A DNA stretch of 64,000 nucleotides, from positions 39,460 through 103,459 of IMG/VR virus record IMGVR_UViG_3300037247_000810; one strand, written 5' to 3'. The DNA comes from a virus. The translations under genes were made by a program, and so were the position numbers. Position 1 is the first letter of the stretch. The number at the start of each line of letters is the position of its first letter. The notes under the pieces are model-generated. The model had not been told where the DNA came from and searched no databases. It saw nothing but the letters and a program-made list of their open reading frames with translations. Shown piece by piece: positions 3,241 through 6,936 of the stretch.

Positions 3241-3286
3241 CGGTGCCGGTGGAGGGAGTCGAACCCTCTTCTTACCCTTGACCGGC
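3241..3286 (-). ncRNA. anticodon-less mini-tRNA A (acceptor + T arm)
   Basis: GCCGGT..ACCGGC stem, GAGGG-TTCGACT-CCCTC T arm, short linker, ends ACCG. Confidence 0.7.
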
Positions 3287-3361
3287 TGGAGCCATCGGAG
3301 GGAATCGAACCCTCTCCTGCGGTTTACGAAACCGCTGCACAGCCACTTGTGCTTCGATGGC
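3287..3361 (-). tRNA. tRNA-Thr(CGT)
   Basis: cloverleaf, loop TTCGTAA, encoded CCA. Confidence 0.93.
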
Positions 3362-3447
3362 TGGTAGCCTCGGCGAGAGTCGAACTCGCACGCCGTTTCC
3401 GGCCGGGGCTTCTAAGACCCCTACGTCTACCATTCCGTCACGAGGCT
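3362..3447 (-). tRNA. tRNA-Leu(TAG)
   Basis: loop CTTAGAA, long variable arm; A1 shared with the terminal A of the upstream tRNA. Confidence 0.9.
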
Positions 3448-3522
3448 GGTACACCTGGTAGGAGTCGAACCTACAATCTCTCGGATGTGAACCGAGCGCC
3501 TTAGCCTTTGGGCCACAGGTGC
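3447..3522 (-). tRNA. tRNA-Val(CAC)
   Basis: loop TTCACAT, CCA. Confidence 0.88.
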
Positions 3523-3597
3523 TGGTGCTTCGGGACGGATTTGAACCGCCGACGCCGCGCTCTTCAGGCGCGCGCTCTACCCCTGAGCTACCGAAGC
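3523..3597 (-). tRNA. tRNA-Phe(GAA)
   Basis: loop CTGAAGA, CCA. Confidence 0.95.
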
Positions 3598-3598
3598 G

Positions 3599-3675
3599 TG
3601 GTGGGCAATACAGGACTCGAACCTGTGACCTCTGCGATGTCAACGCAGCGCTCTAGCCTGCTGAGCTAATCACCC
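3599..3675 (-). tRNA. tRNA-Val(GAC)
   Basis: loop TTGACAT, CCA. Confidence 0.95.
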
Positions 3676-3750
3676 TGGAGCGGAAGAAGGGACTCGAACC
3701 CTCGACATTCTCGTTGGCAACGAGACATTCTACCACTGAATTACTTCCGC
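3676..3750 (-). tRNA. tRNA-Gly(GCC)
   Basis: loop TTGCCAA, U73, CCA. Confidence 0.95.
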
Positions 3751-3837
3751 TGGTGTCACCGGCGAGAGTCGAACTCGCACCCCCTTGCGGGGACAAGGCT
3801 CTCAACCTTGCATGTCTACCTGTTCCATCACGGTGAC
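3751..3837 (-). tRNA. tRNA-Leu(GAG)
   Basis: loop TTGAGAG, long variable arm. Confidence 0.93.
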
Positions 3838-3913
3838 TGGTGAACTCGGTAGGAATCGAACCTACGACATCCGACGTATCAGATCGGCGCTCTAACCCCT
3901 GAGCTACGAGTCC
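3838..3913 (-). tRNA. tRNA-Ile(GAT)
   Basis: loop CTGATAC, CCA. Confidence 0.94.
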
Positions 3914-3989
3914 TGGTGACAGCGGGTGGACTTGAACCACCGGCCTTCGCCTTATGAGGGCGCTGCTCTACCAACTGAGCTACGCTGCC
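3914..3989 (-). tRNA. tRNA-Met(CAT), elongator-like (Ile2 not excluded)
   Basis: loop CTCATAA, G1-C72 paired. Confidence 0.88.
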
Positions 3990-4067
3990 TGGTAGCCCCA
4001 GCAGGATTCGAACCTGCGACGTTCCGCTTAAGAGGCGGCTGCTCTGGCCGGACTGAGCTATGGGGCC
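3990..4067 (-). tRNA. tRNA-Lys(CTT)
   Basis: loop CTCTTAA, CCA. Confidence 0.93.
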
Positions 4068-4153
4068 TGGTGCGCAAGGAGGGAATCGAACCCTCAAACC
4101 CTAGTGGGCACACGGTTCTGAGCCGTGCGTGTTTACCGTTTCACCACTCGCGC
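4068..4153 (-). tRNA. tRNA-Leu(CAG)
   Basis: loop CTCAGAA, long variable arm. Confidence 0.93.
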
Positions 4154-4241
4154 TGGTGGGGCAGGTAGGACTCGAACCTACGGAGACCGTTAAGGCCAGC
4201 AGGGTTACAGCCTGCCGCAATTGCCGCTATGCGACTACCCC
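4154..4241 (-). tRNA. tRNA-Tyr(GTA)
   Basis: loop CTGTAAC, long variable arm. Confidence 0.94.
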
Positions 4242-4243
4242 TT

Positions 4244-4317
4244 TGGAGACCCCGGCCGGATTCGAACCGACGATAACCGGGTTGCAGCCGGTTGCCTTAC
4301 CACTTGGCCACGGGGTC
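4244..4317 (-). tRNA. tRNA-Cys(GCA)
   Basis: loop CTGCAAC, U73. Confidence 0.94.
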
Positions 4318-4390
4318 TGGCACACCTGGTAGGAGTCGAACCTACTCTCACGGGTTTGGAGTCCGGTCGGCGCATCCCGCGCTCAGGTGC
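4318..4390 (-). tRNA. tRNA-Trp(CCA), atypical D arm
   Basis: loop CTCCAAA, G73; D arm GCGC-GGGAT-GCGC. Confidence 0.87.
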
Positions 4391-4465
4391 TGGCTGTCGG
4401 ACTAGGATTCGAACCTAGAACTTCCTGATTCAGAGTCAGGCGTCATACCGTTAGACCATCCGACA
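4391..4465 (-). tRNA. tRNA-Gln(CTG)
   Basis: loop CTCTGAA, U1-A72. Confidence 0.94.
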
Positions 4466-4539
4466 TGGATGCGGGAGCAGGAATCGAACCTGCATTCACG
4501 GGTTCAAAGTCCGACGTCCGACCTTTAGACGATCCCGCA
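4466..4539 (-). tRNA. tRNA-Gln(TTG)
   Basis: loop CTTTGAA, U1-A72. Confidence 0.92.
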
Positions 4540-4626
4540 TGGTGCGCCGGGAGGGAGTCGAACCCTCATGCCCCTGGAAGCACACGGGTTTGAGCCGTGC
4601 GTGTCTACCAATTTCACCACCGACGC
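4540..4626 (-). tRNA. tRNA-Leu(CAA)
   Basis: loop CTCAAAC, long variable arm. Confidence 0.93.
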
Positions 4627-5453: not shown

Positions 5454-5501
5454 CTGTGTCGGCTGCGGGAATCGAACCCACCTAACACCAGTTTAGCCGA
5501 C
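5454..5501 (-). ncRNA. anticodon-less mini-tRNA B
   Basis: 7-bp GTCGGCT/AGCCGAC, T arm GTGGG-TTCGATT-CCCGC, 13-nt linker containing TGG. Confidence 0.72.
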
Positions 5502-5578
5502 TGGCGACCCCTACGGGATTTGAACCCGTGACCTCCGCCTTGACAGGGCGGCGAGCACAACCACTGCTCCAAGGGGCC
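5502..5578 (-). tRNA. tRNA-Asp(GTC)
   Basis: loop CTGTCAA, G73. Confidence 0.95.
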
Positions 5579-5663
5579 TCGTTGCTAGCGCAGGTGCCCT
5601 TGGCCTTGGCTCCCCGACCGACCCGCTAGCTAGTCGACCGGATCAACGCTGTACCGAAGGGCT
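5579..5663 (-). ncRNA. unassigned ~85-nt structured, possibly pseudoknotted RNA
   Basis: GCCCTT/AAGGGC followed by ACC, GCTAGCG/CGCTAGC, CGTTG/CAACG. Confidence 0.45.
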
Positions 5664-5739
5664 TGGTGGCGGAGGCAGGATTCGAACCGACGTTCTCTTG
5701 CTTATGAGGCAAGCGAGATGACCACTTCTCCACTCCGCT
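5664..5739 (-). tRNA. tRNA-Met(CAT), initiator-like
   Basis: loop CTCATAA, 1:72 mismatch, A11-U24; lacks the 3 GC anticodon-stem pairs. Confidence 0.82.
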
Positions 5740-5814
5740 TGGCGGCCCATCAGGGAATCGAACCCTGCTCTGATGCTTGAGGGGCATCTATCCTATCCGA
5801 TAGACGAATGGGCC
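5740..5814 (-). tRNA. tRNA-Glu(CTC)
   Basis: loop CCCTCAA, 4-nt variable loop. Confidence 0.92.
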
Positions 5815-5890
5815 TGGTCGGGACGGCAGGATTCTAACCTGCGATTCCGTGCTCCCAAAGCACGTGTGTTGAACACTACACTACGCCCCG
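5815..5890 (-). tRNA. tRNA-Pro(TGG)
   Basis: loop TTTGGGA, C1-G72; T loop TTAGAAT. Confidence 0.9.
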
Positions 5891-5967
5891 TGGTCGGAGT
5901 TGCAAGACTCGAACTTGCGGCCCCCGCGTCCCGAACGCGGTGCTCTTCCTGGCTGAGCTAAACTCCG
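5891..5967 (-). tRNA. tRNA-Pro(CGG)
   Basis: loop TTCGGGA, C1-G72. Confidence 0.93.
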
Positions 5968-6043
5968 TGGGGTGATCGAGGAGATTTGAACTCCCGCTAA
6001 GAGGGCCACAACCTCTTGTGCTAACCACTACACTACGACCACC
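5968..6043 (-). tRNA. tRNA-His(GTG)
   Basis: loop TTGTGGC, encoded G-1:C73. Confidence 0.94.
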
Positions 6044-6044
6044 T

Positions 6045-6118
6045 TGGAGCGCCTAGCGGGAATCGAACCCGCGAACTCTGCTTGGAAGGCAGATATGTTG
6101 CCCCTACATCACAGGCGC
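6045..6118 (-). tRNA. tRNA-Gly(TCC)
   Basis: loop CTTCCAA, U73. Confidence 0.94.
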
Positions 6119-6193
6119 TGGTACGGGCGGTGGGACTCGAACCCACACCGAACGGTTTAAAAGACCGCTGCTCTGCCTTCGAGCTACACCCGC
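6119..6193 (-). tRNA. tRNA-Lys(TTT)
   Basis: loop CTTTTAA. Confidence 0.92.
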
Positions 6194-6269
6194 TGGTAGC
6201 GTCGACGGGATTCGAACCCGCTCCGTCCGGTTTGAAAGACCGGCGACCTATCCTGTAGTCGACGACGCT
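6194..6269 (-). tRNA. tRNA-Glu(TTC)
   Basis: loop CTTTCAA. Confidence 0.92.
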
Positions 6270-6345
6270 TGGAGCCTTCGGCGAGATTCGAACTCGCTGC
6301 CTCGTTCTTACCAAGAACGCGCTCTACCAATTGAGCTACGAAGGC
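6270..6345 (-). tRNA. tRNA-Thr(GGT)
   Basis: loop TTGGTAA. Confidence 0.94.
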
Positions 6346-6353
6346 TTGTTATC

Positions 6354-6683
6354 GAGCAATCGGGTCGTAAGCCGCTTTCTGTTTCTCTGCCTACATCTCT
6401 CTAGCTGTCACGCGGTCGCTGCCAAACTACCCGCCGCGCCTCCGGCCCCCTAACGCAATCCGTCTTTTCACACGACCTCCGTGTCTCCGGGTCTCGGCAG
6501 GCTCGGTGGCCCGCTACCCGTAGTCGCTGTTCGTGACATCTCGCCGGTCTCTTGCCCGACGGCCCGCCTTATTAGGGACGGGTAGGTTGTTTGGCGGCCG
6601 AGCGGACTTTCCTCAAGGGCCTCGTGGTGCAAACGCCTCGCGGCTCCCACCAGACGATCCTGCGTAGGCACGTCCGATTGCTC
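6354..6683 (-). ncRNA. rnpB: RNase P RNA (divergent, reduced)
   Basis: CR-I GAGGAAAGTCCGCT and CR-V ACAGAAAGCGGCTTA form P4 with a bulged U; P1 GAGCAATCGG/CCGATTGCTC; P2 TGCCTAC/GTAGGCA; CR-IV-like CTAGAGAGATG. Confidence 0.92.
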
Positions 6684-6686
6684 TCT

Positions 6687-6737
6687 TGGCAGCCGGTCGC
6701 GGAATCGAACCGCACGGAGGTCAACCAGACCCCGGCT
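6687..6737 (-). ncRNA. anticodon-less mini-tRNA C (acceptor + mini D arm + T arm + GCCA)
   Basis: AGCCGG/CCGGCT, GGTC-TGGTT-GACC, TGCGG-TTCGATT-CCGCG; directly 5' of the RNase P RNA. Confidence 0.72.
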
Positions 6738-6812
6738 TGGTGCCCTGAGCGGGAATCGAACCCGCATCTGCCGCTTAGGAGGCGGCTGCGCTATCCATTA
6801 CGCCATCAGGGT
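6738..6812 (-). tRNA. tRNA-Arg(CCT)
   Basis: loop CTCCTAA, A20. Confidence 0.92.
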
Positions 6813-6887
6813 TCAATAGGCATCCGTGCCGATGGCCTTCCTGGCCCCAATACCACGGCCCGCCTGAGTTAAGGCACACGGGCCGGA
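6813..6887 (-). ncRNA. unassigned ~75-nt structured RNA
   Basis: CGGCCCG/CGGGCCG, CCT/AGG, possible pseudoknot GTGCC/GGCAC. Confidence 0.4.
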
Positions 6888-6936
6888 CGGTCGACTGCGC
6901 GGGGATTTGACCCCATAGCGCCAAGCGCCGCAGCCG
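6888..6936 (-). ncRNA. anticodon-less mini-tRNA D
   Basis: CGGCTGCG/CGCAGTCG, GCG-CTTGG-CGC, GGGG-TCAAAT-CCCC, ends ACCG. Confidence 0.62.

Follow-up and report, generated by a model that had tools for sequence, protein, structure and literature searches.

Conserved anticodon-less mini-tRNAs at the junctions of a phage tRNA operon and their possible role as RNase P cleavage handles

The window analysed here is a stretch of 64 kb, the last part of the 103-kb IMG/VR virus record IMGVR_UViG_3300037247_000810, which is 82% complete. It carries a minus-strand array of transfer RNA (tRNA) genes. The subject of this study is a set of four short RNA modules in this array, called mini-tRNAs, in which an acceptor stem and a T arm are present without an anticodon arm (Table 1). 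All of the array tRNAs encode their CCA, and the spacers are mostly 0–2 nucleotides (nt) long. An original prediction, made from the sequence alone, had placed four modules at these positions, each with an acceptor stem, a T arm and a short linker, starting 0–1 nt after an upstream CCA and ending in ACCG, ACAG, GCCA and ACCG. The positions, the folds and the ends were all borne out, and the modules lie on the minus strand. Non-tRNA sequence is located directly 3' of each of the four.

Module 1 is composed of GCCGGTC, an 11-nt linker, GAGGG-TTCGACT-CCCTC, CACCGGC and ACCG; its 7-nt acceptor strand makes 6 pairs and its T stem 5 base pairs (bp). Module 2 (GTCGGCT, 13-nt linker, GTGGG-TTCGATT-CCCGC, AGCCGAC, ACAG) has a 7-bp acceptor and a canonical T arm. 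A canonical T arm is also found in module 3 (AGCCGGG, 16-nt linker, TGCGG-TTCGATT-CCGCG, ACCGGCT, GCCA), where it is combined with the acceptor AGCCGG/CCGGCT. Acceptor and T arm are present in all of the four, and only module 3 has a full NCCA end. Module 4 has an 8-bp acceptor (CGGCTGCG/CGCAGTCG), a 14-nt linker with a small D-like hairpin (GCGC-TTG-GCGC), a T stem of 4 bp (GGGG/CCCC) whose 6-nt loop is deviant, and the tail ACCG. The helix is therefore 7/5 in modules 1–3 and 8/4 in module 4, and the anticodon arm is absent from all four folds. GG occurs within the linker of every window module. The DNA sequencing runs containing the phage are from marine sediment, and no RNA run was listed as containing the region. 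Of the contigs that four DNA runs gave for the region, most were unrelated tRNA contigs. Contigs of run X1 are identical over modules 1–4, and contigs of runs X2 and X3 match modules 1, 3 and 2 with differences. Across module 2, a 133-nt contig of the separate run X3 aligns to 5394–5530 with 4 differences and 4 gap letters.

Table 1. Features of the window and of related loci (L numbers) on which the analysis is based
Feature	Position	Strand	Remarks
Mini-tRNA 1 (terminal class)	3241..3286	(-)	directly after CCA of the last tRNA, Thr(cgt)
Mini-tRNA 2	5454..5501	(-)	directly after CCA of tRNA-Asp(gtc)
Mini-tRNA 3 (pre-RNase-P class)	6687..6737	(-)	directly after CCA of tRNA-Arg(cct)
Mini-tRNA 4 (Arg(UCU)-linked class)	6888..6936	(-)	1 nt (extra A) after CCA of tRNA-Arg(tct)
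tRNA array	3287..7310	(-)	40 ARAGORN tRNAs and 2 cryptic
Two weak tRNA-like genes	4318-4390, 4781-4849	(-)	from Rfam search
Sigma-70-type promoter	7360..7388	(-)	TTGACA, 17-nt spacer, TATATT; 11/12 matches; 5' of first tRNA
Reduced RNase P RNA	6352..6681	(-)	330 nt, 3' of module 3; RF00010 full-length match
75-nt non-tRNA RNA	6813..6887	(-)	between mini-tRNA 4 and tRNA-Arg(cct)
85-nt long-hairpin RNA	5369..5453	(-)	between mini-tRNA 2 and tRNA-Ser(gga)
Terminal non-coding RNA and intrinsic terminator	2973..3240	(-)	~230 nt 3' of mini-tRNA 1; terminator hairpin ~2973-3008
85-nt non-tRNA hairpin	5579..5663	(-)	after tRNA-Met; no canonical mini-tRNA
RNase P RNA homologues	L025:14142-14487, L016:13994-14332, L010:7175-7519, L012:8047-8452, L032:~3490-3820
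Endonuclease open reading frames (relatives)	L012:7289-7786, L012:9138-9602, L010:8339-8819, L026:1527-1967, L032:~2900-3400; L012:10478-10828

The RNA located 5 nt downstream of module 3 is a reduced ribonuclease P (RNase P) RNA. It matches the bacterial class A model RF00010 end to end, with a low score of 26 bits (E 2e-5 to 1e-7), and both strands of the P4 hallmark, GAGGAAAGUCC and ACAGAAAGCGGCUUA, are present. It is kept in five relatives, where 20 of 90 predicted pairs show compensatory change and P1, P4 and other helices are maintained. A module precedes all of the five operon-embedded copies (window, L025, L016, L010 and L032). No module precedes the copy of L012, which is served by a promoter of its own (TTGCTT, 17-nt spacer, TATACT). 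Reduced RNase P RNAs of 280–312 nt were also found in seven unrelated IMG/VR contigs (L002–L008), with scores of 64–203 bits and mostly near tRNA genes; no minihelix stands in front of them. Genes for RnpA and for a CCA-adding enzyme were not found in the 82%-complete record, which says little about the whole phage.

The other downstream RNAs are less uniform. The terminal RNA behind module 1 has a core of ~150 nt that is conserved, together with the terminator, in L014–L018 and L022 (alignment A5). It is composed of two 5' hairpins and a long-range pairing, GGGCGGCG...CGGCCGCC; the window copy carries an additional 70-nt 5' insert, and no Rfam match was obtained for 2973–3240. The counterpart of the 75-nt RNA behind module 4 is 0 to 155 nt long in the relatives and poorly conserved in sequence. 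No homologue of the hairpin RNA behind module 2 was found in the relatives.

Relatives of the array were searched for in several collections. Of 50,697 phage records compared with the array by megablast and blastn, none was a relative, and only generic tRNA-Arg matches came up. The viral contigs contained one Pol relative (L009/G001), a 56.8-kb fragment without the array, and neither single flanking proteins nor alignment A1, used afterwards, detected anything among them. The neighbouring MmcB-like protein (window 1992–2657) has many metagenomic homologues. With an MmcB-like alignment, 18 metagenome loci were retrieved, 12 of which carry syntenic minus-strand tRNA arrays. A pattern search for the RNase P RNA added the IMG/VR contig L032 and gave no match in genome contigs.

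Of 14 related arrays, 13 have the terminal module behind their last tRNA, and its acceptor shows compensatory changes; the L032 copy is without the T arm. In L013, L012 and L026 nothing lies between this module and the terminator hairpin. Orthologues of the pre-RNase-P module occur in L025, L016, L010 and L032, each with the tail ACCA, and those of the Arg(UCU)-linked module in L025, L012, L016 and L032. In L032 two tRNAs flank the Arg-linked module, which takes up a slot of 48 nt and has no cargo; outside L032 the spacer downstream of this class ranges from 35 to 155 nt and is not conserved. After tRNA-Asp, mini-tRNAs are present in the window and in L012, apparently not homologous, and the one in L012 precedes an HNH-type open reading frame (ORF). 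Module 2 and its cargo are specific to the window, without a clear homologue in the relatives. No full tRNA stands at a module position in any relative, and the orthologous positions in L022, L010, L024 and L032 gave no tRNA match at E ≤ 0.1; the finding by which the original prediction would have fallen was thus not made. Streptomyces phage Tomas has no clear module, and an Aeromonas T5-like phage has only two doubtful ones. In the Aeromonas T5-like L029, a minihelix-like element at 4894-4932 (+), GTGAACG...CGTACAC with a canonical T arm, is located 11 nt before tRNA-Ser.

The module architecture was counted at array junctions and elsewhere. The strict descriptor used for this called for six or more of the 7 acceptor pairs, a T stem of 5 bp, the T-loop motif and a linker of at most 30 nt. 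At the array gaps of the phage and 12 relatives it matches 14 of the 180 positions that directly follow a tRNA, three of the 14 being window modules, as against 16 of 241,612 non-array positions (6.6e-5). The enrichment at junctions is therefore ~1000-fold. Modules 1–3 pass the strict T-loop motif; module 4 fails it, yet is conserved in four relatives. Pairing in the 23 parsed modules amounts to 92% for the acceptor and 100% for the T stem, and sliding the partner strand by 1–3 nt lowers it to 25–69%. These percentages are partly inflated because several modules were found by a pairing criterion. They come from our own structural parse, since the 5' acceptor strands resisted alignment with MAFFT. 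Three findings do not depend on that selection, namely the orthology, the compensatory changes and the fixed position next to a CCA. Double-sided change was seen in 21 of 44 class-wise pairs; the fourth acceptor pair of the terminal class, for instance, varies among G-C, C-G, A-U and G·U. Module identity between relatives is 34–82%, as against a median of 74–79% for orthologous tRNAs. The mini-tRNA feature is real, conserved and under structural selection. The original prediction had held random decay to be unlikely on the ground that the same arm would have to be lost four times. The rejection of decay holds, by the compensatory changes and the junction enrichment. Four independent losses of that arm did not take place in this genome, however: three of the modules belong to classes common to the junctions of the relatives, and module 2 has no clear homologue.

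The conserved core can be described simply. Acceptor and T-stem strands sum to 12 (7/5 or 8/4) in 20 of 23 modules; those of L012, L026 and L022 sum to 11 (7/4, one base being unpaired). Most modules have the T loop TTCRANY. The tail is ACC in 17 and GCC in 2 of the 23 (NCC in 19), with a free fourth base, so that A76 is not required; window module 2 (ACA) is an exception. All of the window modules and their orthologues begin 0–1 nt after an encoded CCA, as does every tRNA of the array. The linker is only 1 nt in L018, L014, L015, L024 and L010 and reaches 70 nt in the terminal module of L010. Thus the GG linker or mini D hairpin, which the original prediction had counted as part of the architecture and which all four window modules do contain, is dispensable, and the conserved core is the classical RNase P minihelix substrate. 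A covariance model built from two terminal modules (R1) recovers other modules at 20–35 bits. It is unusable as a detector because it is swamped by the 3' halves of real tRNAs.

The modules were compared with known RNA classes. For none of the four was there an ARAGORN call, an RF00005 match at E ≤ 5 (cut-off 29 bits) or an anticodon arm. Membership of tmRNA, also in permuted form, of YrlA and of mascRNA was rejected on the following results. With the model of transfer-messenger RNA (tmRNA), including tmRNA reduced to the tRNA-like domain (TLD-only; RF00023, cut-off 47 bits), the best result was a local match of 13.1 bits to the T arm of module 2. ARAGORN found no tmRNA in the window, and a positive control, L024:2267-2347, scored 63.4 bits on RF00023. 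For mascRNA-menRNA (RF01684, cut-off 42.5 bits), module 4 reached only 27.9 bits (E 0.012), and the context is a phage. For YrlA or bacterial Y RNA (RF02553, cut-off 69 bits), only matches of 18–29 bits across tRNA-tRNA junctions were obtained, and Ro60 (TROVE domain) was not found in the 82%-complete record. The features of a minihelix-type substrate, a 12-bp helix with a T loop and a 3' RCC(A) tail, were found in most of the module set.

With moderate confidence, we read the modules as RNase P cleavage handles: a cut there would mature the CCA end of the tRNA in front and set free what follows, be it an RNA or the terminator. Judged from sequence, co-transcription, RNase P cleavage and the fate of the products are most likely as follows. 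One precursor would be transcribed from the promoter at ~7388 to the terminator at ~2973. Where tRNAs abut CCA to 5' end, a single RNase P cut at tRNA n+1 would make the CCA-3'OH of tRNA n. Where the next element is not a tRNA (the RNase P RNA, a small RNA, the terminal RNA or the terminator), a minihelix with 3' NCC would replace the tRNA. RNase P would cut at the 5' edge of the minihelix, either as the host holoenzyme, as the host protein with the phage-encoded RNA, or as both. The upstream tRNA would thereby be freed with its CCA complete, and the RNA or terminator behind the cut would be separated from it, retaining the minihelix as a base-paired 5' end.

Such an adapter had been put forward originally, and it is the best-supported role, by the minimal substrate core, the CCA abutment and the RNase P RNA of the lineage, from which we infer it. 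RNase P efficiently cleaves hairpins of acceptor stem, T stem and T loop with a 3' RCCA (McClain, Guerrier-Takada and Altman 1987, reviewed in PMC11143913), and the 3' RCC of hairpin substrates pairs with the ribozyme (PMC11143913). In Escherichia coli, RNase P removes terminators from the valU and lysT transcripts and then proceeds 3' to 5' along the polycistronic tRNAs (PMC4176162). The terminal module would accordingly serve the upstream tRNA and not a cargo, because in L013, L012 and L026 nothing but the terminator follows it.

Several observations weigh against this role. The Arg-linked module of L032 stands between two tRNAs and separates nothing, so an adapter would be superfluous there. 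Five of the seven listed homing-endonuclease ORFs were inserted after tRNAs in the relatives without a module, and the upstream tRNA therefore does not strictly need one. The tail of module 2 is ACA and not NCC, and the T loop of module 4 is non-canonical. A search of the 82%-complete record for an RNase P protein gene gave nothing, and the reduced phage RNase P RNA may have lost its CCA-binding loop. Finally, the 85-nt insert at 5579–5663, after tRNA-Met, has no canonical module. It is absent from the relatives and forms a hairpin with a 9-bp closing stem (GCCCTT.GG/CC.AAGGGC) followed by ACC; because of this stem and tail, it may itself be a hairpin-type RNase P substrate without a T arm.

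The minihelix might instead remain on the downstream RNA as a 5' scaffold or cap, where its tRNA-like, base-paired 5'-monophosphate end would protect the cargo from 5'-end-dependent nucleases; the purpose of the module would in that case lie with the cargo and not with the upstream tRNA. The presence of a non-tRNA RNA 3' of every window module is consistent with this, and the ACC tails, as a CCA anti-determinant, would disfavour removal by RNase Z-type enzymes, as is generally known. Large inserts are found inside the minihelix frame of L010 and L022 (70 and 45 nt), and L010:7972-8094 is a 123-nt RNA with an acceptor-like closing stem and ACC, which follows the same principle as a tRNA scaffold. 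In phage T5, the tRNA-like RNA1 and RNA2 likewise stand directly 5' of stable RNAs I/III and IV. A protective cap had also been considered in the original prediction, and it is weakened by the three relatives in which only a terminator follows the terminal module, by the cargo-less Arg-linked module of L032, with a non-conserved cargo elsewhere, and by the RNase P RNA of L012, which has no module. As the main purpose of the modules we judge it quite unlikely. Scaffolding and cleavage are nevertheless compatible and not mutually exclusive. A different alternative is that some modules, the Arg(UCU)-linked class at the least and perhaps also the pre-RNase-P class with its NCCA end, are released as stable, free-standing mini-tRNAs of ~45 nt with a job of their own. 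They might be decoys or competitors for host factors recognising the top half or CCA end of a tRNA (defence toxins, RNase P, the CCA-adding enzyme, EF-Tu or modification enzymes). They might also be chargeable minihelices; the original prediction had suggested aminoacylation or a decoy role for the GCCA-ended copy. A tRNA slot of L032 is filled by the Arg-linked module on its own, and RNase P cuts on both sides would release it. This class keeps its 8/4 or 7/5 helix, a covarying D-like hairpin and a yCCGAAy loop in five phages, while its downstream spacer varies from 0 to 155 nt; because the module and not the spacer is the conserved unit, the Arg-linked class at least may have its own function. 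The NCCA end of 5/5 pre-RNase-P modules and the presence of a TLD-only tmRNA, another anticodon-less mimic, in the same arrays of relatives point the same way. However, A76 is missing from most tails (ACCG, ACCT, ACTC, AGCC) with no trimming nuclease evident, and there is no conserved identity element, a G·U third pair being found only in the window and L012 copies of module 4. Free-standing molecules seem quite unlikely, but such a role, like scaffolding, would be compatible with RNase P cleavage. A broader idea, a stable family of top-half tRNAs acting as decoys or competitors at the acceptor/T-arm elbow or at the CCA end, or as cis or trans regulators of the phage RNase P RNA, is unlikely though worth keeping in mind. 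The main hints for it are the lone Arg-linked module of L032 and the NCCA module tethered before each operon-embedded RNase P RNA.

The modules could finally be evolutionary debris without function, either internally deleted tRNA pseudogenes or scars of homing-endonuclease cassettes. HNH (PF01844) ORFs and one PD-(D/E)XK ORF are abundant in the arrays of the relatives, where they sit between tRNAs, typically right after ACCA; the window has none. Most of them follow a tRNA directly with no module between. An HNH cassette is headed by a good mini-tRNA in L012 and by a weak or degenerate one in L032, where the HNH-type cassette was inserted after the RNase P RNA. A degenerate tRNA remnant lies at L016:13851-13917, and module 2 with its cargo is peculiar to the window. 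A tRNA-like gene of 69 nt at 4781–4849 (-) also bears on this question. It is without a D arm and has a T arm and CCA, and an extended stem carries the anticodon-like loop CUUGUAA (UGU = Thr). ARAGORN missed it, Rfam gave it 23.9 bits as a tRNA, and in every relative it corresponds to a 68–71-nt gap. It is probably the tRNA-Thr(UGU) of the lineage. The pre-RNase-P module shares the AGCCG acceptor and the CTGGTTG linker motif with this Thr-like gene, which is present in every array, and it resembles the gene without its central hairpin. Therefore, descent of this module from a tRNA by internal deletion is plausible, and the same origin would be plausible for the modules in general. Loss of function is another matter. 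Orthologues persist although the MmcB-like neighbours are only 47–65% identical, the stems are maintained by compensatory changes with a 12-bp helix and constant CCA abutment, and the descriptor is strongly enriched at junctions. Functionless remnants are therefore very unlikely.

Among the closest counterparts of the modules are the synthetic minihelices of McClain and co-workers, which have the same 12-bp coaxial acceptor/T helix, T loop and 3' RCC(A) without D or anticodon arm. The linker-less modules of L018, L014, L015 and L010 are almost literally this substrate. In contrast to these laboratory constructs, the phage modules are natural conserved genes at defined operon junctions, many have a GG linker or small hairpin, and most are without A76. 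RNA1–3 of phage T5 are similar in another respect, as they lie in a tRNA cluster with HNH genes and have a tRNA frame without a working anticodon arm; AY543070 annotates them as 'tRNA-like stable RNA with unknown functions'. RNA1 is directly 5' of stable RNAs I and III, RNA2 is 5' of RNA IV, and RNA3 starts 2 nt after tRNA-Asn. The T5 RNAs differ in being 73–144 nt long with the D arm kept and large inserts (RNA1 and RNA2 fold as tRNA frames with such inserts), and no RNase P RNA is annotated there. No sequence similarity of the array to T5-like phages was found.

Other tRNA mimics share single properties with the modules. The mascRNA and menRNA of MALAT1 and NEAT1 are tRNA-like elements with a non-functional anticodon, and the RNase P cut at their 5' edge makes the 3' end of the upstream RNA; mascRNA serves as the RNase P site (PMC8457004, PMC4824109). 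They differ as parts of eukaryotic nuclear long non-coding RNAs, mascRNA being a four-arm cloverleaf with a subsequent RNase Z cut and CCA addition, and no homology is present. The TLD-only tmRNA of mycobacteriophage DS6A is also a phage-encoded, anticodon-less tRNA mimic and is thought to titrate SmpB (PMC4131195). The window modules are half its size and without the GGGG...UUCGAC 5' motif and the conserved G3:U70. The relatives do carry elements of this kind, ~80 nt long, at L024:2267-2347, L025:11607-11686, L012:6909-6988, L026:3002-3084 and L013:2881-2962, and the window has none. These elements show G3:U70, A73, CCA, a tmRNA-like 5' GGGG...GGUUCGAC and, in L024, an end-to-end match to the Rfam tmRNA model; they are TLD-only tmRNAs because there is no tag frame. 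YrlA of Mycobacterium smegmatis and the C4 antisense precursor of P1/P7 are non-tRNA RNAs with a tRNA-like acceptor cut by RNase P. The tRNA-like module of YrlA is an RNase P substrate (PMC4201824), and the C4 precursor is cut by RNase P (cited in PMC11143913). They differ, however, in that YrlA is bound by Ro60 and C4 is a single regulatory RNA without tRNA-operon punctuation. The 8/4 tRNAs of phage tRNA clusters (Mukai et al., PMC5389517) are different as well, being complete decoding tRNAs (Ser, His) with anticodon arms. In the literature outside subscription journals, no description of a phage-encoded RNase P RNA or of minihelix punctuation of a phage tRNA operon was found.

Since 1987, minihelices of acceptor and T arm have been used in the laboratory as model substrates of RNase P, the CCA-adding enzyme and synthetases, and they are central to the 'top-half first' ideas on the origin of tRNA. 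Here, such a minihelix is a natural gene that has been conserved and whose positions in the operon follow a clear logic. If the modules are cleavage handles, RNase P alone would make nearly all 5' and 3' ends of a 40-tRNA operon, and the phage would supply the RNA of the enzyme. The operon would then be a natural counterpart of engineered tRNA-spacer arrays, and a testable explanation would be at hand for the long-unexplained tRNA-like stable RNAs of T5-type clusters. The modules offer compact natural processing handles for synthetic RNA operons. The results also raise the question of anti-defence roles of anticodon-less tRNA mimics in phage arrays.

Some further features of the phage and its array were recorded. 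The phage encodes a PolA-UDG fusion, a UvsX-like recombinase and a gp32-like protein. A GC hairpin with a T-rich tail behind it, at 7335-7350 (-) between the operon promoter and the array, could be a leader or attenuator-like element. The weak tRNA-like gene at 4318-4390 (-) is a 73-nt tRNA-Trp(CCA)-like gene with 28.4 bits, slightly under the Rfam cut-off. The tRNA-Arg(UCU) at 6938-7007 (-) is irregular, with 70 nt and a D arm of only 3 bp and a 4-nt loop, and the tRNA-Ser(tga) at 5110-5192 obtained a higher score with the tRNA-Sec model (49.1 bits). The 12-nt spacer between tRNA-Arg(tcg) and tRNA-Ser(gct) at 4940-4951 (-) is a tandem duplication of the junction (GAAGCGGTGCCA).

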